DNA from: a virus | DNA: 64,000 bases | Direction: 5' to 3' (one strand) | IMG/VR virus record: IMGVR_UViG_3300023296_000994 | Shown: positions 784 to 54,146 of the stretch, one piece after another | How the letters are laid out: every line of letters starts with the position of its first letter | Numbering within the stretch: position 1 is the first letter of the stretch | The notes under the pieces: generated by a model | What the model saw: the letters and a program-made list of their open reading frames with translations, nothing else | Told to the model about the DNA's origin: nothing | The model's database searches: none | Position numbers and translations under genes: made by a program

Positions 784-819
784 GTATATAAATATACATT
801 GAGTCAGAAAACGATCGGG

Positions 820-892
820 TGGCGGATGAAGGATTCGAACCTCCGACCTCCGGATTATGAGCCCGGTGAGCTGGCCACTGCTCTAATCCGCG
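820..892 (-). tRNA. tRNA-fMet (CAT)
   Basis: CGCGGAT/ATCCGCC acceptor with a 1:72 mismatch, CCGGG-CTCATAA-TCCGG anticodon arm, canonical GGTTCGAATCC, no encoded CCA. Confidence 0.9.
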
Positions 893-911
893 ATGTTTAT
901 TTTTATTGTAA

Positions 912-1940
912 CCTTGAGACTATAGGTTTTACACTGATACTTTTGTTACCGTACCCATAAGGTGCTACCCTACAGTTAATAACTTATCCACTAACCCATC
1001 GGATTAGTATACCAGCAATACCGCCTTTTTTAAAGTGTGGCTTTTCACTTGTCATAATGAAACTACTCGACTTTCATCCTTTTCCTGACCTTGCGAGCCA
1101 TTCATTCCTGCTAAGGAATTAGATGTGGAATTCAATCAAATCATATCTGCCTTGCGAGCGTCAATGATTCTGTGTTACTTTTCAGTCACAGAATTAGGTA
1201 ATTTGTTTTTCATTACCGTAGTGGCCTTTGCGTTTTGTTTATACTTGCGTATAATAGTGTACGAGTCGAACGTACTACCTTTCGTTTAGAAGACGAATGC
1301 TCTACCAAATGAGCTAACTATTGAAGTTATTTAAATCCACCGAGATGTGCCACTACGGTCGCTTCATATCTTTTTGGGATACAAAATACAACACACCTCA
1401 TGCGTTTCGGGCTACCAACCCTACTGTGCCATATTTCAAGATTAATAGGAATCTTTAACGATTCCGTTTACCTTTTATATTGAATAACCGCTTTTGTACT
1501 GGTGGTACTTTAACCGTTATTCTACAACTTGTCTAATTTTGAGTTCGAAGATTTAGCGTGACATAGCAGGGTGCTAACCCTTTTGCTCTCACCGTGTGGC
1601 ACCGAGCTTATCTTTCCCAAAGACTATTATCAATCAACTTATTCATATCAACCAGTTTGGATCTGATTGCTGCGCTTGGGAGCGTAGTAAGATGTTGCTT
1701 GCTTAAATGAACTTATTGCTAAGCGGAAACGTGTGGAACTATTTCCTTTCATATTCTTACGAATACATATTCTTTTTTTAGACAATACACCTTATCGGCG
1801 GCTATGCCGTTCACGCGTCGATGTATTGCCAAATGGATATCAAGCTACCCATATATTTTAAAACTACTTTTTGGAAGCCAAAAGCAACATTATCTATACT
1901 TCATCCCAGATTCCAAGTCTGAGCCTATAGTCTTAAAGAC
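912..1940 (-). ncRNA. GOLLD-like giant structured ncRNA with an embedded tRNA
   Basis: About 1 kb with no ORF in the track, inside a tRNA cluster. Two GCTCGCAAGG loops, GAAAGTCGAGTAG, the GAGGTGTGTTGTATT...GGCACATCTC helix and a 3' ...TATAGTCTCAAGG end resemble GOLLD. The ends pair (917-926 with 1924-1933). It has its own promoter at 2018-2049. Confidence 0.75.
1251..1323 (-). tRNA. tRNA-Arg(TCT)-like, embedded in the ncRNA
   Basis: CAATAGT-TA-GCTC..GAGC-A-TTCGT-CTTCTAA-ACGAA..GTACG-TTCGACT-CGTAC-ACTATTA-T. Confidence 0.85.
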
Positions 1941-1977
1941 ATATAAATTACATTTAGTTTAAAATGCTTTCATCATG

Positions 1978-1986
1978 TTAAAGAAC
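1978..1986 (-). promoter_or_regulatory. boxA-like antitermination element (GTTCTTTAA)
   Basis: Resembles the rrn boxA (GCTCTTTAACA) and lies between the promoter and the ncRNA. Confidence 0.45.
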
Positions 1987-2017
1987 AAGATTCGGAACCT
2001 TTTCCGAACCAACAATA

Positions 2018-2049
2018 CTAAGATACGTAATTTTCATCGAAATACCAAA
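2018..2049 (-). promoter_or_regulatory. Bacteroidota-type sigma70 promoter TTTG-N20-TATCTTAG (one of 12 copies)
   Basis: Same spacing at 2475-2506, 3378-3409, 5995-6026, 6289-6320, 9851-9882, 9973-10004, 29603-29634, 33106-33137, 36514-36545, 41543-41574 and 50053-50084. Confidence 0.8.
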
Positions 2050-2089
2050 TTTCTTTGGACTTTTTTTGAAAAAGTTATCCACATTGTAG

Positions 2090-2164
2090 AGCGGTAGGGT
2101 GGATATGAGCCACCGGCCTTCTAGTTGGTAACCAGACGCTCTGACCAGACTGAGCTACTACCGC
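2090..2164 (-). tRNA. tRNA-Gly with rare ACC anticodon and altered T loop
   Basis: GCGGTAG/CTACCGC-T acceptor (Gly identity G1-C72, C2-G71, G3-C70, U73), TCTGG-TTACCAA-CTAGA anticodon arm, T loop CTCATAT. Confidence 0.8.
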
Positions 2165-2366
2165 AAATGTTTTATCAAATTAGCCATGTTTCCATGTTAC
2201 CGATTACGCCACGAGGAGGCTTTGATGTGTAATCGTCTGGGTTTCGTTGTTACTTGGACCTTATCTATAGTTGATCCTTTCACCGTTGTATGTTATTTTA
2301 AATCGCCGTCTGCCTAATACCCTTTACAGGGACGATTATAATGTTAATGAATTCTTACGGTATTAT

Positions 2367-2453
2367 TGCCCAGTGTTGGATTCCATACCAACATATCTTC
2401 CTAGAAAAGCGTCCTTTAGATGGGTTAACATCGGATATTGGACTAACTGAACA
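2367..2453 (-). ncRNA. tRNA-like element with expanded D loop and shrunken anticodon arm
   Basis: TGTTCAGT/ACTGGGCA stem, GTCC/GGAC D stem, GTTGG-TATGGAAT-CCAAC T arm, just downstream of promoter 2475-2506. Confidence 0.5.
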
Positions 2454-2598
2454 CCGTCATCATCACCAACAATACTAAGATACGCAATTTTCTAACAACT
2501 ACCAAATTTTTAATGTTAAGAAACTGTTAAATGTTTTCATAACCTTTACCGTTCATATTGTAACATATAAGTATATGTAATTTTATAAAACGGGATTG

Positions 2599-2686
2599 GG
2601 TGCATAACGAGAATTGAACTCGCGTAATACTTTCGTATCCCTGATTCACAGTCAGGTCCGGCTAACCAACATCCGGCTTACACACC
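2599..2686 (-). tRNA. tRNA-His(GTG) with long variable arm
   Basis: G-1 and C73, CCTGA-CTGTGAA-TCAGG anticodon arm, extra GATAC-GAAA-GTATT hairpin, GCGAG-TTCAATT-CTCGT T arm. Confidence 0.85.
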
Positions 2687-2697
2687 ATATATAAATA

Positions 2698-3135
2698 TTA
2701 TTTATTTAATAATAAATCTAATTCTTTCATATTTTTCTTAAGCAACTTATTTAGCCTATCAGATTCCTTTTTAAGCTTTCTGCTTGCTATGTCAATTCGT
2801 TTAAGTTCTGCCTGCTTTATTTCGGTCATGTTATTTTCAAGCCAAGTGTTATATTCAAGTAATTTGGATAAATACTTTAGTCGATCAGATTCATATACTT
2901 TTTCCCTTGCAGCGAAATGTTCATCAGGTTCATCGCCAAGCCAAGCCAATTTCATAATGAAATCACCAAAGCGGTCGGGCACGGCATCGATATATGCGAG
3001 ATTAGGAACTACGTTATATTCTTTACATTTATCTATCAATTCCTGTACAGTACAGTCATATAGGTCAAATGTCATTGATACCTGAGTCCGACGTACAGGC
3101 GCAATAGGTTCAATTGGCTTCTTTTTCATTCTCAT
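2698..3135 (-). CDS. Hypothetical protein with coiled-coil C-terminus
   Basis: 145-aa ORF between tRNAs. Confidence 0.7.
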   Translation of the reverse strand: MRMKKKPIEPIAPVRRTQVSMTFDLYDCTVQELIDKCKEYNVVPNLAYIDAVPDRFGDFIMKLAWLGDEPDEHFAAREKVYESDRLKYLSKLLEYNTWLENNMTEIKQAELKRIDIASRKLKKESDRLNKLLKKNMKELDLLLNK

Positions 3136-3149
3136 AATAACTGTTTGTG

Positions 3150-3223
3150 CACACCCAGAAGGATTCGAACCCTCGTCCCCGGGTTTGGAAGCCGGTATCC
3201 TGGACCAACTAGACGATAGATGT
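3150..3223 (-). tRNA. tRNA-Trp(CCA), atypical
   Basis: ACATCTA/TGGGTGT-G acceptor, loop TTCCAAA, C31-C39 mismatch, canonical T arm. Confidence 0.75.
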
Positions 3224-3271
3224 GTATTATTTATTAATGTTTATATAAGTATAAGTTTATTTTGTGTCCAA

Positions 3272-3372
3272 TTACCAGATATAAATACTGATATTGCTGA
3301 AACTTGAGTGTCTTTCTGTAGTACCATTATCTAATGTACCATCGAAGTCAAATGATACCCTTTGTTCGTCAT
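3272..3372 (-). pseudogene. Remnant of a HAD-family phosphatase gene
   Basis: Encodes VSFDFDGTLD (HAD motif I) out of frame with its ATG ACG AAC AAA and stops after about 30 codons. Promoter at 3378-3409. Confidence 0.5.
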
Positions 3373-3448
3373 TAGAAACAAGATACGTAATAATGTTCGT
3401 ATTTACAAACTTTTCTGAAACTTTAACATATTTTTATAATTATAATTG

Positions 3449-3521
3449 AGGCCCGGGCTGGATTCGAACCAGCGTAAATGGATTTGCAGTCCATCACCTA
3501 TAGCCACTCGGACACCGAGCC
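3449..3521 (-). tRNA. tRNA-Cys(GCA)
   Basis: GGCTCGG/CCGGGCC-T acceptor, ATGGA-CTGCAAA-TCCAT anticodon arm, canonical T arm. Confidence 0.92.
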
Positions 3522-3556
3522 TTGTTGTATATAACTATACAGTATAAAAGTTATTT

Positions 3557-3952
3557 TTATAGTAATCTTGCGAATCGTTTTGGAAGGTATACGTTATTCA
3601 GTTCTTTTGCACCTTCGAACAATGGACCTACTTGTTTGGGCCTTAACCCGGCTAAACCACACCCTATTTCAGTTACAAGGAACGTGAGGTCCGGTCTAGA
3701 GCGCGCGAATTCTACAAAGCGGTCTACGTATGGTTTCATCTGATCTAACGTTAGGGTACGTCTGATGGCCGAATCTTTGCTAGGTATGCCGTATGTCCTA
3801 CCTTGCAGGCCTTCTGCCTGGCCGTACACAGCGCCCCATGTGAGCGCTTGGCGCGCGGCGCCTTTACCATGCCGGCCACCTTCGTTAGAGCCAAATACGA
3901 ATACCTGATTTTCAGCTAGCGTTGTTATATTTTCTGGTGTATGTTTCATCAC
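3557..3952 (-). CDS. A1S_2505-family phage protein (macro-domain-like)
   Basis: FVFGSN..GRHGKGAA...YGQAEGLQG.TYGIP...FLVTEIGCGLAG. Confidence 0.75.
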   Translation of the reverse strand: MMKHTPENITTLAENQVFVFGSNEGGRHGKGAARQALTWGAVYGQAEGLQGRTYGIPSKDSAIRRTLTLDQMKPYVDRFVEFARSRPDLTFLVTEIGCGLAGLRPKQVGPLFEGAKELNNVYLPKRFARLL

Positions 3953-3970
3953 GTTAAATATGTAATTGGA

Positions 3971-4117
3971 TTAGCGCCGGCTTCTACGATTCCAAGTTTT
4001 CTGTTCGAGTAGAGTTCTGTCAAGTTTTTCTGTTAGTTCATGAATTAACCTTTCTAGTTCTTCAACTCTACTTTCTAGGACTTCGATTTTGTCAATAAGT
4101 TTCAGTTCAGCATCCAT
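3971..4117 (-). CDS. Small coiled-coil protein (48 aa, MDAELKLIDKIEVLESRVEELE...)
   Basis: Open frame filling the gap between neighbouring genes, with a heptad pattern. Confidence 0.6.
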   Translation of the reverse strand: MDAELKLIDKIEVLESRVEELERLIHELTEKLDRTLLEQKTWNRRSRR

Positions 4118-4130
4118 TGTCTATTAGTTT

Positions 4131-4724
4131 TTATGGTATGTATAGATTGGTAAAGTTATCTTTATGTACTTCAACTTCAGGATAAAGTAAGCTAAATGCT
4201 TGTAAATTAAACGGTTTAGTTACATAATGATATCCATTTTTCGATGGAATAATATCAATTAATTTATTACCTACTGGTAATATTGATTTAAGTTGTATCG
4301 GTAGGTTCATATTATACTTATCGTTATCAAATTCATCAATATCAATAATCCATTTTTTACGTTCCTTTGGAGTACTGGCCCTTCCAACCGTACTGGTATA
4401 TATTCTATGTGAGTAATCGGTTTGGTTTGACTTTATTACCTTGAGCATAGCTTCCACAGAATTAAAAGCTACGTCATATGAGTTACGTACATTAATCCAG
4501 AAAGCTGCCCTGGCAGAAAACATCTCACATAACTTAATAATTTCGGGTATAGTTTTATCATATTGCTCTACGCTGTAGATAAAATAATTCTTAACTATAT
4601 ACGAATTACGACCCAGGTCGGGATTTTCTTTTTTACGTTGGATGACTTGTAGGTAATAGAAATCACCTGGGTCTGTAAACGTTAAAAAGTTATCCCTAAT
4701 TTTGGTTATATTATCAGTCATCAC
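4131..4724 (-). CDS. Conserved phage protein, AEP primase-like motifs
   Basis: WIIDID and SKNGYH resemble AEP motifs I and II. Confidence 0.55.
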   Translation of the reverse strand: MMTDNITKIRDNFLTFTDPGDFYYLQVIQRKKENPDLGRNSYIVKNYFIYSVEQYDKTIPEIIKLCEMFSARAAFWINVRNSYDVAFNSVEAMLKVIKSNQTDYSHRIYTSTVGRASTPKERKKWIIDIDEFDNDKYNMNLPIQLKSILPVGNKLIDIIPSKNGYHYVTKPFNLQAFSLLYPEVEVHKDNFTNLYIP

Positions 4725-5961
4725 CTAACAACTTAAAAATGTCATCAGTGCCGTTTATCTGTACATATCTTTGTACAACTTGCTTAACAAACGAACGTTC
4801 AGAATCATTTCCACCAGACGAATCATAATGAGGAAATACACATACTTCACAAGATTCTTCCAATGTAAACCCATCTTCAATGAGCGATGTAAGTTCCACC
4901 GAATTCCGCGTACTAATGGGATGGTCAATTTTACCATTTTCATTAGCTGCTTCCACCCGCGTGAGCGACACAATTTCACAAATAGCGTCAATCATTTCCG
5001 GTGCAACATCTGGGTATAATTTAGACAACAAACTGTTTTCCTGGTCATTGTCCAGTAGGTCCATTTCAATAATAGTAAATCGGTCAATTAGCGCCTTATC
5101 CATTTGACGTGTGCTGGTGTATTCATGTCCGATATTAGCCGTAGCGATGAAACAAACACCATCAGCTACCTTTACAGTAGGAGAGTCTGCATGTTCATCA
5201 ATCCGTAAGTACCGCTGAGTTTCATCCAATACGGTCATCAGAATATTTCCTGCTTCGGGATGAGCCCGGCTAAGTTCATCCAACAGAATCACCGCGTTTT
5301 CAGTCTGAATAGCCTGGATGAACAATGATTCAGCGAAAAAAGTTCCTTCATCTTTTGCGAAGTGAGTGTTTCCGATAAGTGTGGACCGAGGGTCCTGAGT
5401 TGCCCCAAGATTAAAGTAAAAGTTAGGACGTTCAAATGCTTCGAATGCACTTCGGGCGGCCATTGTTTTACCACAACCAGCGGGCCCTGTCATCAGTACA
5501 TTCTTACCACGTAGAATACTACGAACAAGATACTTCCATTTAATTTCACTGATTTTCAGCAATTCTGGCTTACGGTCCAATGAATCAACGTGTACGGCCT
5601 GGATGAAATCCATTTTTGCCATACTAATAGTTGAAGATGGAACAGCCTTCGGCTTTGCCGATGTGCCTTCACCGGGTTGTGACGGCCGGACGGTGCCTGA
5701 TGAACCTTTATACCGACACTTAGGCGGAATAGCTTTATTTCCTACATAATCCATAGGTAGCTTCATACGATCCAAGCACAACTTTTGATTCCCAGCGGGT
5801 AGGTGTGTTTTAGTTAACCGAGCATTAATGCCACTGACGAAACACTCACTAGCGTAGGTATCAGCATCAATGGATTGGTCCAGACACGAAGTATCTAAGA
5901 TATTTCCATCACAGTCAACAAATTTAAGCGGCCCTTCTTCCGGCACTTTTAGAATAATCAT
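4714..5961 (-). CDS. MoxR/CbbQ/CobS-type AAA+ ATPase
   Basis: GPAGCGKT Walker A, ILLDELSR Walker B, ATAN and ALIDRF. Confidence 0.9.
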   Translation of the reverse strand: MIILKVPEEGPLKFVDCDGNILDTSCLDQSIDADTYASECFVSGINARLTKTHLPAGNQKLCLDRMKLPMDYVGNKAIPPKCRYKGSSGTVRPSQPGEGTSAKPKAVPSSTISMAKMDFIQAVHVDSLDRKPELLKISEIKWKYLVRSILRGKNVLMTGPAGCGKTMAARSAFEAFERPNFYFNLGATQDPRSTLIGNTHFAKDEGTFFAESLFIQAIQTENAVILLDELSRAHPEAGNILMTVLDETQRYLRIDEHADSPTVKVADGVCFIATANIGHEYTSTRQMDKALIDRFTIIEMDLLDNDQENSLLSKLYPDVAPEMIDAICEIVSLTRVEAANENGKIDHPISTRNSVELTSLIEDGFTLEESCEVCVFPHYDSSGGNDSERSFVKQVVQRYVQINGTDDIFKLLGDD

Positions 5962-35791: not shown

Positions 35792-36486
35792 TACGCTAAC
35801 TTGACCAAGTAATATTCAGATGTATAATCCGCCGTAGCGAATGTTAAATGACATAACCCTTTACTTGAAATCTTCATTGATGCACTTTCACTATTCTTAT
35901 TAGCAACAAGAATTGACTTTAAATAATCTGCTGAAAATTGAATGGGCTTCATATCGCCGGATGATGTACATTTAACTACCATTGATACACGATTGGTGTT
36001 CAGTGTGGAATATCCTAAGATAATTTCGCCTGAGTCTGCTGAATAGCTAAATGTAAATTTATCACTATCAGGAAGAGCTGCTTTAGATTTGATGAATCGA
36101 GTGATGAAATCAATATCAAGTTTAATGTCAGCTTCAAAATCGGGAATCTGCTTCATTTCTGGTACATCGGGAATAACTGCCATGTCCGATAAAACGTATG
36201 TTACTGCTGTATTACTATCAGACAACTTAATTGTACTATCAGAGTGTCTAACCTTAATGTCAGAATCAAGTACAGTTAACATCGATTTGAGTTGACTGGT
36301 TGTATATATACCAAATTCTCCAGCAGGAAAATCGGGTTCGTTTGATGTTACATTACCCAACAATGTTTTATCATCGGATATAAATGATACATACATTCCA
36401 GCGGAATCTGCTGAAATTTTAACAGATTCAACTTCACCTGATAGATTGTATCGGGTTATAAATCCGTCTAATTTAGATTTGTTCAT
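35791..36486 (-). CDS. Sliding clamp (gp45/PCNA-like)
   Basis: Size of 231 aa, beta-rich repeat pattern, and position between the polymerase and the clamp loader. Confidence 0.75.
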   Translation of the reverse strand: MNKSKLDGFITRYNLSGEVESVKISADSAGMYVSFISDDKTLLGNVTSNEPDFPAGEFGIYTTSQLKSMLTVLDSDIKVRHSDSTIKLSDSNTAVTYVLSDMAVIPDVPEMKQIPDFEADIKLDIDFITRFIKSKAALPDSDKFTFSYSADSGEIILGYSTLNTNRVSMVVKCTSSGDMKPIQFSADYLKSILVANKNSESASMKISSKGLCHLTFATADYTSEYYLVKLA

Positions 36487-36556
36487 AGTTTACTTTACTT
36501 TTTTGGAGTGATTACAATATAAGGATAATTACTGATAATACCAAATTATTATCAGG

Positions 36557-37461
36557 TTAAAATGAAAAGAATTGTGATGCGGTTTCCAAATTTTCATTTG
36601 GTAGTTCCCATCCAAGTGACGTATAGAATTGTTCCAACTTCTTACCGATTTCACTATTCCATATCTGATCATAATCAATGTATGTATTGATTATATTTAG
36701 GATTTCATCGGAATCTTTGTAGCCTGTGAAGGCAACTGATTCCAATCCAAGATTATTATGTAGTAAATATACCCACTTGATTTTATCACCGTCCTTAATC
36801 GGTTCATACTTAGTAGTAAGATTATAATGTGTAAGTAGTTGATTATGGGCTATACATGATTTGACGTGAGCAGGTGTACCTTTGGTAAACGCACCTAATA
36901 ATTGGTCTTTATAAGTGTATTTACTTATACCCTTTACACCTGAATTACGTCCCAATGATGTAATCGGTTGGTTAGATATATCTTTTCTGTATGCCAGAAT
37001 TTTGTTATCCACTGCCACCTTATTTTCAACTTTAAGTATGTCCATCAGTACCTCAGACATAATAGTTTTGAAGTATGGTGGAAATGATGACCTACGTACA
37101 TCTAGCCCCTTTACATCAAGTTTATCACAGTTAACCCCCTTATCATTAATAATCCACTGAGCATATCGTTTCTTTGCAACCCAGAATGCGCTCTTAGCAA
37201 TTGTTTCTTGTTTGATATTAAATCGATGTGATTCAATATTAAACATTCGAGTGGCCATAACATCATATGTCGAGTTAATATGATTTTGAATTTCACCTGC
37301 TACTGATAGAATGGCAGGTATCATTTGATCATCATTGTTTTCATCAATATCTGGATTACGTGTTTTTACAAGCGGCGTTGATTCGTAGAATACTGAGTCA
37401 GTTAAGTGTCCACGTAAATGTTATAATCTACGTGGACTTTTTCAATTTTTTTGATTTTCAT
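36557..37461 (-). CDS. DNA polymerase B, C-terminal subunit (299 aa if the 5-nt gap in YVDT/DS is bypassed)
   Basis: ATG 37461 gives MKIKKIEKVHVDYNIYVDT then a stop. DSVFY resumes at 37399 in the frame carrying KKRYA and VKGLDVRRSS. The protein ends ASQFFSF. Confidence 0.85.
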
Positions 37462-38126
37462 AAATAATAATAAATTCACACCCTAGATGGGTTGTTATTT
37501 CGTTTTGTCTTATTTTATCCTTTTCAATTCGATTAGTATGGAATGATTCGTAATATTCAATTACGATATTTTTTTCCTTACTATATCCATCAACCCAGTA
37601 GCCAAGTTCTTTAATATAAAATTCTCCGCCATTTTCGGCGTGTTGGAGGTCTACTATATCAAGTTCTTTTGCTTTGGCCTCAATGATGGAAATTGATGAT
37701 GGATTATAGTTTGGAGAAATACCATGCTTGGATATCAATTCGTCAATTCTCTTTAATCTTAGTTTCCTAACACTTTTGGGATTATCCATCGGATTCTTAC
37801 CAACCGAAGTCCAATACTTATATCGTATTTTCTTCATCGCGGCGGTTGCATTTTTCTTCCAAGTCGGGTGTTTATTTCTAGTTTCTATCATTGAATCAAT
37901 ACTATCCTTGCTATGTCGTTTTCCTTTAAATGGATTTTTATCACCACGAACATCAGCGTGATTCTTACTTAGACTTTCTTTATGTTTATCACTAAATAAT
38001 TTACCTGTCTTAGAACAACTCAAACATTTCTTATTTTCAGCTATAGCTTTTTCATGAAACCATTTAGTTTTAATTGTTATTTCGATGCCGCAAGTGGGAC
38101 AATTTCGTACATATTTTCATCATCAT
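37442..38126 (-). mobile_element. Free-standing Vsr/DUF559-like endonuclease with Zn finger and NUMOD3, frameshifted just after its ATG
   Basis: CPTC..CLSC, NPFKGKRHS, HAENGGE...YWVDGY...IEYYE..H. ATG AAA A TAT GTA places the start one base out of frame. Confidence 0.75.
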
Positions 38127-38172
38127 ATCTCCTATAATAAGTATATGATTATTCAACTTTCTGTATGGAGTA

Positions 38173-40116
38173 CTAGACAACAATATCATCATCTTCCGTT
38201 AATTCACCAACTTGCTTCTTACTACCATCCATTAACGTAACAAATTCATTTACACCAAATATTAATTCTTTGCCATTTTCTAGTGTGAGTTTATGTGGAT
38301 TTATGTGTTCATTGTAGTATGCGTTGGCAATCTTTTCCGTAGTTTTAATAATGGTTTGACCACACTCTGTAACAGCTGCAGCATTATCAAGGTCATAAAA
38401 TCTGAACGTGGCAAGCCCAAGACAGCCATATAAACTATTAAGCATGATTTTTTGGGTATGCTGCCTTCTATCGTAGAATTTATACAAATCGGTGGCTCCG
38501 GCCTTACCGTGTGATTTCATTAACTTTGTATATTCTGTTCGTTTTTTAAACCAAACATCTAAGATTTCTGCAATGACACCAACTTTATCCTGTCTATACA
38601 ATACACCATTGGATGATACCGAATAGTTAGATTCTGATAATAGCTCTTGGAATTTAGCTTTGTTAATAGCAGGATAATAGTCGCCGTGACTATCTTCAAT
38701 AATGTATTCATCTATTTCATCGGATATATATCGTTCCGTAGTGAAATTATGAACCTTGCCCATCTTAGTTTCTGGACTAATATTTAGGCTCATAATAATA
38801 CTTGGATACAATGATGTTAAGTCCAAGTCATATACCCATTTATATAATCCGGTAATAGGTTCCTTTACATATGCTCCTACAAAATCAAGTGCCACCTTAT
38901 AATCAGTACCAGCTTCTTTTTCTAGTGGCTTTGATAATGTAAATGTTGATCCATCATATGAATCATACGATACAATAATATAGCTGGATGTAGATTTACT
39001 TATTTTTAATCGGCCTGTTCCAGGTACGTTTGTCAGTATGTTAGATTCCATATTAAGCTTCGTGGTTCCAACGGGATGCTTTCTACTTAATACTAATGAC
39101 AAACGGGGTGGTGAATTTGTTGCAATTCTATTATTCCGTCTAAGGAATGTTAATATAGCACCTTCCAGCCATTTAGATGAAAAAAGAAAATCTTCATATT
39201 GAGTGTGACCGGCATGAGTAATTGAACGAGCAAGGTCAATGAATTGTAGCTTACGGTCCATATCTACCACAAGTTCAACGTCTACCAAGTTATATTCTAC
39301 AAACGTTTCAATGTCATCTCTGAATAGTTCATCTAGGCTTCCAACGTATTCTATTTTACCCCTACCCAATACTTCCTTTGCAATAGTATCCAATCGATAA
39401 TTTGCTAGTTCACTATATGTGAAGTTTTTATATAGAGCAAGATAATCAAGGGATGATACACCTGCTATTAAATAACGGCCGCGTCTTTCATTCCAATCAA
39501 CTATACCAATCGGTGACAACCTATTAGCAACACCTTCCGAAAATACAGTCTTGATTCTGTTATAGAGATATGTAATATCAAAATAATCTATGTTCCACCC
39601 AGTTATAATGGTGGGATTTATTTGTTCCCATTTATTAAGGAATGCAAGTAGTAAGCTATCTTCATCTGGAAAAGATTGTACAATGGCTTTCTTAATCTTC
39701 TTATCTATTGATAAATCTGATATCACATATACATAATAATCATCTGTTGTAGAATCATGTAGCGCTATTGATGTGATTGCATTATCAGCATCAGTTAAGT
39801 CAGGTAACCCCGTTACCATTTCAACTTCAATATCAAACGTAACTACAGTATGGCCGGTGGAAATTTCATCACTGTCACCATACGTATCAATTAAGAAACG
39901 AATGATTGGATTTATATCGCTTTCGTGTAATTTACTAGTGGTATATTTATCCCATTCTCCAATTTTCCTTAATTTCTCCCCATAGATAGATTCAAATGCT
40001 CCATTAGCATCCGGTACATATGCATACTTATGGTATTTTTCTTGCTTGTAACCAAGCTCGTCATCCCAATAATGTATAGTATTGGTCTTCCTATCAAAGT
40101 GCACATTCTGATACAT
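38173..40116 (-). CDS. DNA polymerase B, N-terminal subunit (3'-5' exonuclease and palm motifs A and B)
   Basis: FDIEV, GWNIDYFD, YNLVD, DLTSLYPS, KIMLNSLYG. Confidence 0.92.
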   Translation of the reverse strand: MYQNVHFDRKTNTIHYWDDELGYKQEKYHKYAYVPDANGAFESIYGEKLRKIGEWDKYTTSKLHESDINPIIRFLIDTYGDSDEISTGHTVVTFDIEVEMVTGLPDLTDADNAITSIALHDSTTDDYYVYVISDLSIDKKIKKAIVQSFPDEDSLLLAFLNKWEQINPTIITGWNIDYFDITYLYNRIKTVFSEGVANRLSPIGIVDWNERRGRYLIAGVSSLDYLALYKNFTYSELANYRLDTIAKEVLGRGKIEYVGSLDELFRDDIETFVEYNLVDVELVVDMDRKLQFIDLARSITHAGHTQYEDFLFSSKWLEGAILTFLRRNNRIATNSPPRLSLVLSRKHPVGTTKLNMESNILTNVPGTGRLKISKSTSSYIIVSYDSYDGSTFTLSKPLEKEAGTDYKVALDFVGAYVKEPITGLYKWVYDLDLTSLYPSIIMSLNISPETKMGKVHNFTTERYISDEIDEYIIEDSHGDYYPAINKAKFQELLSESNYSVSSNGVLYRQDKVGVIAEILDVWFKKRTEYTKLMKSHGKAGATDLYKFYDRRQHTQKIMLNSLYGCLGLATFRFYDLDNAAAVTECGQTIIKTTEKIANAYYNEHINPHKLTLENGKELIFGVNEFVTLMDGSKKQVGELTEDDDIVV

Positions 40117-53117: not shown

Positions 53118-54146
53118 TCAATTGTCTGCCTTCATATAGCCATAATGATTTCCTACACTACATCGCGATGGGAATTGCAATTTTGACTTAATAAGTTCTT
53201 TGATATAAATATCAGTCTTTTTCGTATCAAAGAGAAATGAATCATACGTATACAATACTAATTTGGATTCTAACGGAGATAATATATCAAATAATTCAGT
53301 CAAAATCAACACATTCATTTCGGTTTCATATGCCTGGATGAGATAGTTGAATAGTTTTCGTGGATTCATGTCATCAAAATTATCACCACTTAATCTACGT
53401 TCTGCAATCGGTGTTTCAATATACCCGTTCGATATGTACGATACCCATAGACGTTCAATATATTCATCGATTAACTTAAAAAAGGTTACGTTACTATATT
53501 CATCGGCAATTCCACCATATAACATTGTAAATGATATTGATTTGGATTGCTTATATTCATCATCAGTTATATCGTCCTTATCATAGTATAACTTAGCCAT
53601 GTGTGTATGAAAACTATCATCGGGTGCATCATATTCAATAAGAGTGGATATCAAACGTAAGTGATATGCATCGTAATCAAATTCAATAAGCTTTCCACCT
53701 TCAAACCTGGATTTAAATCTAGTTCGTGACCCATCATCTTTATTTAAAGCGGCGTAATTTACCCCTCCGTTGGAATTGGATGGGCGGCCGGTTTTTGTAT
53801 ATATGTTATAATGAGTATGCTCATATCCATCTGGAGTATATAATCCAGAGTCTTCTATCTTTCTAAAATATGGAATTAACTTATTTTTGTAAAATAACCA
53901 CGGCGTTGAAGTAGTAAGATTGTCATCAGCTATGGTAGAATAATAGCTCTGTAGTAGTGTGAGACGCTCCCTGTGCTTACATAAAGGTATAATCATGTCT
54001 ACATCGGTTCGCTTCCAATACAACCGTTTGTAGAACGAATGAGCATCGGTTTCAATAGTATCAACGTCAAAGGCACTATTATATTTCAGATAATGAGTTA
54101 ACTGTATATCGTCACATATAGATCGTATTTCGCTGATGACTCCCAT
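53118..54146 (-). CDS. Compact family A DNA polymerase-like protein
   Basis: TGRPSN, FDYDAYHLR, K..SF..LYGG, NY.IQ, YDS. Confidence 0.8.
   Translation of the reverse strand: MGVISEIRSICDDIQLTHYLKYNSAFDVDTIETDAHSFYKRLYWKRTDVDMIIPLCKHRERLTLLQSYYSTIADDNLTTSTPWLFYKNKLIPYFRKIEDSGLYTPDGYEHTHYNIYTKTGRPSNSNGGVNYAALNKDDGSRTRFKSRFEGGKLIEFDYDAYHLRLISTLIEYDAPDDSFHTHMAKLYYDKDDITDDEYKQSKSISFTMLYGGIADEYSNVTFFKLIDEYIERLWVSYISNGYIETPIAERRLSGDNFDDMNPRKLFNYLIQAYETEMNVLILTELFDILSPLESKLVLYTYDSFLFDTKKTDIYIKELIKSKLQFPSRCSVGNHYGYMKADN

Follow-up and report, generated by a model that had tools for sequence, protein, structure and literature searches.

Natural programmed translational bypassing has so far been known almost wholly from gene 60 of phage T4 and its homologues in one gene, and counterparts over shorter distances have 'long been presumed' (2016 review, PMC5009743). 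The 50-nt bypass of T4 gene 60 lies within a MobA homing-endonuclease element (Manning and Atkins, bioRxiv 10.1101/2022.08.31.505936; review PMC5009743); for MobA and the gene 60 insert, immunity of the element to its own nuclease has been reported (as summarised in 10.1101/2022.08.31.505936), and the same preprint, in which polymerases are not mentioned, terms the bypass cassette 'unique'. Pairing of the mRNA behind the ribosome has been proposed as the driver of forward bypassing (10.1101/2024.12.09.627546). Low-efficiency stop hops, in which 9 nt specify one amino acid, are described for synthetic E. coli constructs (PMC5009743), and +5 and +6 hops were reportedly observed in Weiss et al. 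1987. Split family B DNA polymerases (PolB) are described for Aeromonas phages 25 and 44RR (split gp43, 43A/43B; Petrov et al. 2010, as summarised in PMC2988022), and the subunits co-purify and polymerise DNA (PMC2988022). Genes fractured together with free-standing Vsr-like or GIY-YIG endonucleases were reported by Dassa et al. 2009 (PMC2677866).

The locus analysed here is a phage PolB gene with five bases, beginning with a stop codon, inside catalytic motif C. It was found in a stretch of viral DNA of 64,000 nucleotides (IMG/VR record IMGVR_UViG_3300023296_000994), which as a whole is called the window. The five bases are likely to be passed by a hop of the ribosome, which would make the site a natural and very short counterpart of T4 bypassing; this has not been shown by experiment, and no description of a PolB hop was found in the full-text literature searched. 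As in the synthetic stop hops, a peptidyl-tRNA would leave a stop-flanked codon and re-pair a few bases downstream; the synthetic hops are unprogrammed and reach about the per-cent level, whereas the PolB site is natural, conserved, located in an essential gene and equipped with a dedicated hairpin. The Aeromonas gp43 genes likewise encode a T4-type PolB in two cistrons, in phage 25 with a seg-type endonuclease between them, but no coding gap or recoding has been reported for them. The genes of Dassa et al. are also marine phage-type genes broken by a Vsr-like/NUMOD3 or GIY-YIG endonuclease, and their intein-less SbcD-like case has added residues on both sides of the break; most of these genes, however, depend on split inteins, an insert with a stop codon is absent from all of them, and bypassing was named only as an unlikely alternative. 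The mitochondrial 'byp' inserts of Magnusiomyces capitatus resemble the PolB site as short skipped inserts with imperfect codon matching (two-out-of-three pairing; PMC5009743) and differ from it in being mitochondrial, genome-wide, 27–55 nt long, independent of mRNA context and without a nuclease cassette.

The split polymerase gene of the window

The window derives from an uncultured T4-like phage in which the PolB gene is split in two by a selfish nuclease gene. All features lie on the minus strand, in a T4-type replication block in which sliding clamp, dUTPase and clamp-loader genes come after the PolB C-part. The closest cultured relative is Microcystis phage Mel-JY01 (42–47% identical); megablast of the locus against GenBank phages gave no match. 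The N-part (43A-like; 38173–40116; 647 aa) comprises the exonuclease, motif A and motif B regions (Pfam DNA_pol_B, 5.4e-28; DNA_pol_B_exo1, 1.8e-21). Residues 1–605 were covered in a tblastn comparison with phage PolBs, and likeness to unsplit PolB stops near ...ANAYY. The C-terminal extension (CTE) that ends the N-part (38176–38313; ~46 aa, ...LTLENGKELIFGVNEFVTLMDGSKKQVGELTEDDDIVV) is missing from unsplit PolB and kept in all cassette-bearing relatives, with similar tails in L045, L054, L026, L115 and LR756508; it is presumed to be a docking tail, which is an inference. A free-standing homing endonuclease gene (37442–38116) follows, with a CxxC...CxxC N-terminus and a C-terminal HAENGGE...VDGY...IEY.E..H motif. 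A split-intein fractured gene was considered and rejected, as no Pfam Hint or intein domain was found in the 647-aa N-part, the tail lacks a Cys or Ser where one would be expected, and only 11 leader residues come before the PolB sequence is taken up again.

The leader, an N-terminal extension of the C-part (37402–37461), consists of 19 codons (MKIKKIEKVHVDYNIYVDT) and TAA; its ATG (37461–37459) lies within a 20-nt stretch that is shared, in different frames, with the 3' end of the endonuclease ORF. The last eight leader codons are genuine PolB motif C (DYNIYVDT, homologous to unsplit relatives), so a change of frame is required exactly between DT and DS (or between D and TDS). The take-off codon ACT (37405–37407), which encodes the Thr of DTDS and is ACN in all relatives, is followed by the five bases that would remain untranslated, TAACT (37400–37404; stop TAA at 37404–37402, then CT), and the landing codon ACT (37402–37400) shares the last A of the stop. 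From there the C-part (36557–37402; TDSVFYESTPLVK... to ...ASQFFSF and a stop; rest of palm, thumb) continues with GAC TCA GTA... for 281 open codons to the stop at 36557. It matches Pfam DNA_pol_B (3.6e-09) and is 58–65% identical, from its first residue, to the best 80 IMG/VR PolBs. Skipping five nucleotides yields DYNIYVDTDSVFY, and unsplit relatives have exactly DYN[IV]Y[VT]DTDSVFY at this place. The exonuclease, motif A, motif B and motif C regions of a family B DNA polymerase are present, with Pfam matches on both halves, and motif C (YxDTDS) is whole only if the 5 nt are skipped. An earlier note, made from the sequence alone, had given this minus-strand sequence with its coordinates, the 19-codon ORF ending in Y-V-D-T-stop, and an identical ACT 5 nt further on that overlaps the TAA and is in frame with the C-part; these points held. 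Its statement that a 5-nt skip restores YxDTDS held by comparison with the unsplit relatives.

A conventional frameshift of −1 (or +2) at the stop would give YVDT-LT-DS (or YVDT-T-DS), that is, one or two extra residues in motif C. In its favour, +5 equals −1 or +2 in frame terms, a stop codon in the A site also stimulates frameshifts, and the ACN at the landing position would then simply be a conserved Thr codon. Against it, there is no slippery sequence, and re-pairing of tRNA-Thr with YAC or NTR would give 0–1 base pairs; the extra L/V-T or T would part two catalytic aspartates at a place where all 44 distinct unsplit relatives have DTDS; and the 6-nt variant described below would be out of frame under −1 or +2. 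This explanation was considered very unlikely. The window also encodes a PolA-like protein (342 aa; 53118–54146), and PolB therefore need not be its sole polymerase. None of the window's six tRNA genes is a tRNA-Thr gene that could favour a hop.

Recurrence of the break in related phages

Relatives were collected from the best 80 IMG/VR loci, from a degenerate pattern scan of JGI/ENA metagenome contigs and from variable-gap scans of IMG/VR. The same interruption was present in 7 of the best 80 IMG/VR loci, in which uninterrupted genes read ...ANQYY..IG...DYN[IV]Y[VT]DTDSVFY...; the metagenome scan gave 31 matches, 24 of them real polymerase loci, and the variable-gap scans additionally gave L121 and the L125/L145 lineage, their other matches being due to chance. 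In total, 23 distinct versions (the window and 22 others) were obtained from more than 25 independent metagenome assemblies, with C-parts at most 65% identical to that of the window. These relatives share ancestry, and sequence counts are not counts of independent events. When 0–14 nt after the stop were allowed in the IMG/VR scans, only the 5-nt class and one 6-nt variant were found at the DT/DS position, and gaps of 7–11 nt were not. A scan of GTDB genomes with the hop pattern gave six matches, all of them chance matches, so no clue to the host was obtained.

A stop codon (TAA, TGA or TAG) stands immediately 3' of the Thr take-off codon in 23/23 distinct sequences. In the 5-nt class the insert is always stop + C + N (TAACT, TGACA, TGACT, TGACG, TAACA, TAACC or TAGCT), with an invariant C as fourth base; variation is seen in which stop codon is used, in the base that ends the insert (T, A, C, G) and in the wobble position of the take-off codon (T, C, A, G). 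The AC of the landing codon is kept in every 5-nt site but one, while flanking bases vary freely; the exception, TAGCT, lands on GCU, which would form a G.U pair with U36 of the anticodon. Take-off and landing codons do not overlap, and the same tRNA-Thr can pair with both at the first two positions. Matching of the two codons, as claimed in the earlier note, is exact in the window; among relatives it runs from ACN to ACN with frequent third-base mismatches (ACG to ACU, ACG to ACC, ACU to ACG), and once to GCU, so strict codon matching as in gene 60 fails. Leaders begin M[KI]IK.I[KR][KR] (MKIK.IKK-type), are 19–30 residues long and start with ATG or TTG. A similar leader start (MKTKKIKN) is found in LR756508, which has no hop site, and the motif may therefore serve docking and not nascent-peptide signalling.

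The break might also not be decoded at all, either because assembly or sequencing introduced it or because the polymerase gene is dead and its phage defective or helper-dependent. This could be supported by the lack of read data behind the 5 nt in the window assembly, by the nearby endonuclease gene with its 1-nt frame problem at an AAAA run, and by the PolA-like gene at 53118–54146. Against it, more than 25 independent assemblies carry this break and diverge synonymously to either side of it, long open frames have persisted in both halves at 45–65% identity, the 5 nt are not a homopolymer, and the broken gene is the only PolB in a genome judged 90% complete (a 175-kb contig in which the two halves are the only PolB matches). 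Since 22 further distinct sequences, from independent assemblies, show the same design, the break is not an assembly error, and the explanation as a whole was rated as highly improbable. From the contig in which this gene is the sole PolB, and from retention of the break after loss of the endonuclease, it was inferred that the gene is needed and in use.

A further alternative is termination and restart, in which the leader would be freed as a peptide of 19–30 aa and the C-part started separately downstream, giving a three-chain polymerase. Ribosomes can re-initiate near a stop codon in phage operons (PMC2988022), and the L125/L145 lineage has a 6-nt in-frame insert, TAAATG, in which TAA is followed at once by an ATG in frame with DSVFF; this variant is possibly a +6 hop onto AUG (with G.U at the middle position) or possibly a restart at ATG. 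The 5-nt class, in contrast, lacks ATG, GTG and TTG codons from the stop up to the first internal Met of the downstream frame, with a GTG in L026 as the sole exception; the catalytic DTDS beta-turn would have to be shared by a free peptide and a chain starting at D or T, and nothing would account for the conservation of AC in the landing codon. We therefore regard restart as a most improbable explanation.

The hairpin and the mobile cassette

The hairpin in front of the break (37437–37408) has 12 bp counting one G.U pair (GTCCACGTAGAT, loop TATAAC of 6 nt, ATTTACGTGGAC); its 3' arm consists of the motif-C codons I-Y-V-D, and its last base directly precedes the take-off ACT (position −1). The 91-nt region around it has a folding energy of −19.1 kcal/mol (z = −3.69), which none of 200 shuffled sequences reached. 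In relatives the hairpins are at least 12 bp long, and pairing ends on the third base of the Asp codon that precedes ACN; the hairpin end abuts ACN in 21/21 sequences, including those with a leader 10 residues longer. Covariation was tested on an ungapped alignment of ten short-form sequences with 500 shuffles. All 108 alignment cells were paired (100%), and compensatory changes on both sides were present at 5 of the 12 hairpin pairs, for example Y-V-D/V-H-V in the window and Y-T-D/V-G-V elsewhere. The covariation score was matched by 0/500 shuffles, and slid registers dropped to 18–45% paired; across all 20 distinct sequences double changes were found at six pair positions.

The mean minimum free energy of the 60 nt before the take-off codon was −20.4 kcal/mol for the loci with the insert and −5.9 kcal/mol for 34 unsplit relatives, in which the hairpin was not found. 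The uncultured phage LR756508 shares the split, the tail and the leader, but between D and TDS it carries an intein in place of the 5 nt (S...VVHN followed by T; Pfam Intein_splicing 1e-6, below cut-off), and its leader has no hairpin (z = 0.11). The hairpin tracks the insert and not the split, as it is absent both from unsplit relatives and from this intein-bearing split gene. It is under selection and specific to the break; that it drives a hop is inferred. The fold shows no helix involving ACT or TAA, and the gap is just 5 nt; a gene 60-type take-off stem-loop is thus absent. In the earlier note an 11-bp hairpin had been placed just before the first ACT, and of this the placement held and the length did not. 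Its further proposals, a short stop-hop in the polymerase and matched-codon/stop insertions recurring at DT/DS in related polB genes with compensatory hairpin changes, fared as follows: the insertions and changes were found, and comparative evidence supports every named element of the hop, without direct evidence of one polypeptide.

Removal or alteration of the 5 nt in the RNA (tiny hairpin-guided splicing, or editing), followed by standard translation, is a rival reading of the same structure, which adjoins the insert and is conserved. No Rfam family, group I intron included, was found in 36400–38400 on either strand, however; to our knowledge no bacterial or phage system excises 5 nt, and the stop + ACN design would have no role. 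This reading was likewise judged to have very little probability.

The break is part of a mobile cassette of ~1 kb that comprises the polymerase tail, the homing endonuclease, the short Lys-rich leader and the cassette's own diverged copy of motif C with the 5 nt inside. Between the broken L054 and the unsplit L069 the flanks are 97–98% identical on both sides, and ~1031 nt of L054 replace ~66 nt of L069, from after ANQYY to the end of DSVFYE. The N-part tail encoded by the cassette follows the pattern ...LENG....G.N..V.L.NG..KKVSELT..DDVLI. In a tree of the C-part, broken and unsplit genes are interspersed, which requires a minimum of four changes; the sister of L026 is the unsplit L081.

The nuclease of the window gave a weak NUMOD3 match, below the Pfam cut-off, and aligns with the nucleases of L045 and L054; its look-alike clusters in the Atlas carry NUMOD3 and DUF559/Vsr (score 0.93–0.96), in which they resemble the Vsr-like family of Dassa et al. 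2009. A sequence search of the nuclease profile against solved structures gave designed repeat proteins only (E > 0.05). The first canonical in-frame start is TTG 38023, and ATGATGATG at 38126–38118 is one base out of frame; at an AAAA run the reading frame of the gene is off by 1 nt. Nucleases of cassette relatives are mostly of the window type, with a GIY-YIG enzyme in L026 and L116, so that two nuclease families share one cassette architecture. In L115/L117, L119, L113 (remnant) and perhaps L099 the nuclease is lost or reduced, while tail, leader, hairpin and insert stay.

The cassette and the MobA element of gene 60 are alike in several respects: both interrupt an essential replication gene with a free-standing homing endonuclease and add tails to the two halves; the leader (NTE) overlaps the nuclease ORF out of frame, and a CTE is present; the host sequence that was replaced is present in the cassette as a diverged copy (HomR region); an untranslatable insert opens with a stop right after the take-off codon, with a landing site that suits the same tRNA; and the nuclease can be swapped (Vsr-like and GIY-YIG in the PolB cassette) or lost with the bypass remaining. 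They differ in the host gene (motif C of PolB here, the Toprim domain of topoisomerase (Topo2L) in MobA/gene 60), in the gap (20–50 nt in gene 60 and homologues, 5 nt here and thus ten-fold shorter) and in the take-off codon (Thr ACN here, Gly GGA in gene 60). Unlike gene 60, the PolB cassette has no take-off stem-loop and no internal SD; the 5' hairpin abutting its take-off codon is strongly conserved, whereas the 5' stem-loop of gene 60 is not conserved between clades; and its nucleases are NUMOD3 + DUF559/Vsr-like or GIY-YIG and not MobA (HNH). As far as tested, the two elements are analogous and not homologous. By analogy, the probable function of the 5 bases is to destroy the target site of the cassette's own endonuclease, which would lie in the gene's most conserved DNA. 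This self-immunity, already suggested in the earlier note, is an inference; it fits the anatomy of the cassette, which brings a diverged copy of motif C with 5 nt inside, and the MobA precedent. The intein at the same site in LR756508 shows that selfish elements target this stretch.

Proposed decoding and its meaning

The reading that best accounts for these data is that a peptidyl-tRNA-Thr hops +5 over a weak stop with the help of hairpin refolding; this is considered likely and is inferred, there being no read, RNA, peptide or reporter data. Ribosomes would start at ATG 37461 and read 19 codons, after which ACU, with its peptidyl-tRNA-Thr, would occupy the P site and UAA-C the A site. Of the fourth bases in E. 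coli termination signals, C after the stop gives the weakest context, as at the prfB shift site. At that point the 3' arm of the hairpin would be inside the ribosome and the 5' arm just outside; the hairpin would refold behind the ribosome and pull the mRNA forward, and the tRNA would release ACU and re-pair with the ACU 5 nt downstream. Decoding would restart at GAC and give ...YVDTDSVFY..., with the catalytic motif whole; the predicted peptide of the hop product is ...YVDTDSVFYESTPLVK, the product sequence predicted by the model is VHVDYNIYVDTDSVFYESTPLVK, and an example of a predicted junction peptide is NVGVDYNVYTDTDSVFYEALPLVK. The C-part would then join the N-part non-covalently, as inferred from other split phage polymerases. 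Synthesis of one polypeptide from two frames is inferred from sequence alone, without direct evidence. The proposed event fits the definition of hopping, as take-off and landing codons do not overlap (PMC5009743), and pairing of the mRNA that leaves the ribosome into a hairpin fits the forward-drive proposal of 10.1101/2024.12.09.627546.

A bolder reading, towards which we lean by a narrow margin, is that the cassettes form a second, independently evolved family of mobile bypass cassettes, with an efficient hop in diverse aquatic hosts, interchangeable homing endonucleases and the hop insert as an anti-self-cleavage scar in the best-conserved DNA of polB. The same joint claim includes a minimal, self-contained module: a 12-bp 5' hairpin directly before a Thr codon, a weak stop with C after it, and a landing ACN 5 nt on.

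If the hop reading holds, a conserved 5-nt hop is used in the essential polymerase of many environmental phages, and the link between homing endonucleases and recoding is strengthened. Natural variation already flags the key bases (the stop, the fourth-base C, the landing AC and the hairpin at fixed spacing), and hairpin-driven forward slippage could be studied at this site in a very small system that is easy to mutate. Polymerases of this kind will be mistaken by gene callers for truncated or dead genes. Should the bolder reading also be true, nuclease-driven bypassing would be a general evolutionary route and not a T4 oddity, and the PolB cassette would be the simplest natural model for forward sliding driven by refolding of the mRNA behind the ribosome.

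Tail, leader and the LR756508 split polymerase

In the window, the C-terminal extension of the PolB N-part (the tail, 38176-38313) carries the pattern xxVxLxNGxxKxVxELxxxDDVL, which recurs in the tails of the related loci L045, L054 and L026 and is reminiscent of the strands that open intein N-fragments. The leader stretch (37429-37461) of the short ORF opening the C-part begins MKIKxIKK, like the start of split-intein C-fragments. In tail and leader the nucleophile was absent, and no Hint domain was detected by Pfam. Tail and leader may together form a docking module, either intein-derived or convergent. PolB of LR756508.1, a 484-kb uncultured phage, is split as in the window, with a similar tail and leader (L120, taken from LR756508.1 262300-267400, at 3123-4988; L002 3001-6054); its halves are separated by 4 kb of other genes, without a nuclease. 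The hop is absent there and an intein (S1...VVHN|T) lies at D|TDS, the site shared with the 5-nt insert. The LR756508.1 N-part appears to hold a second intein around motif B (...ILINCFTPGHE...VLAGKNGKFNLIGQSVYG).

Endonuclease gene between the polymerase halves

No ATG, GTG or TTG precedes the zinc-finger-like start (CPTC...CLSC) of the window's endonuclease ORF (37442-38116, minus strand). Three ATG codons in a row (38126-38118, minus) are one base out of the endonuclease frame and are followed by an AAAA run (38117-38114, minus); deletion of a single A would bring them into frame with the ORF (whole region 38126-38109). The frame problem could reflect an error in the homopolymer, decay of the nuclease gene or a +1 shift. 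In the related locus L115 (about 5000-5078) the nuclease gene is absent, and the stretch from the N-part stop to the leader ATG contains two tandem copies of ATATAACTAAATATG. This has the appearance of a scar of repeat-repeat recombination that removed the nuclease.

Other genes of the window

A small family-A polymerase-like gene accompanies the T4-type PolB replisome (342 aa, 53118-54146, minus; Pfam DNA_pol_A, E = 2.2e-08, 33.9 bits, slightly below the Pfam cut-off of 34.3). Six tRNA genes are clustered at 817-3521 (minus; Met, Arg-TCT, Gly, His, Trp and Cys), with no tRNA-Thr among them; the tRNA-Gly has the unusual anticodon ACC.

Variant inserts at DT/DS in relatives

In L089 (1339-1370) and L090, which represent one lineage, the stop is TAG and the insert TAGCT, and the landing codon is therefore GCU instead of ACN; tRNA-Thr could pair with it only via G.U at the first codon position. 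L125 and L145 (IMG/VR 3300025644_000172 and 3300025659_000020) carry TAAATG, a 6-nt in-frame insert after ACG, with the same hairpin upstream. Ribosomes would either make a +6 stop-hop that lands on AUG or begin anew at this ATG; in the second case DT and DS would end up on separate chains.
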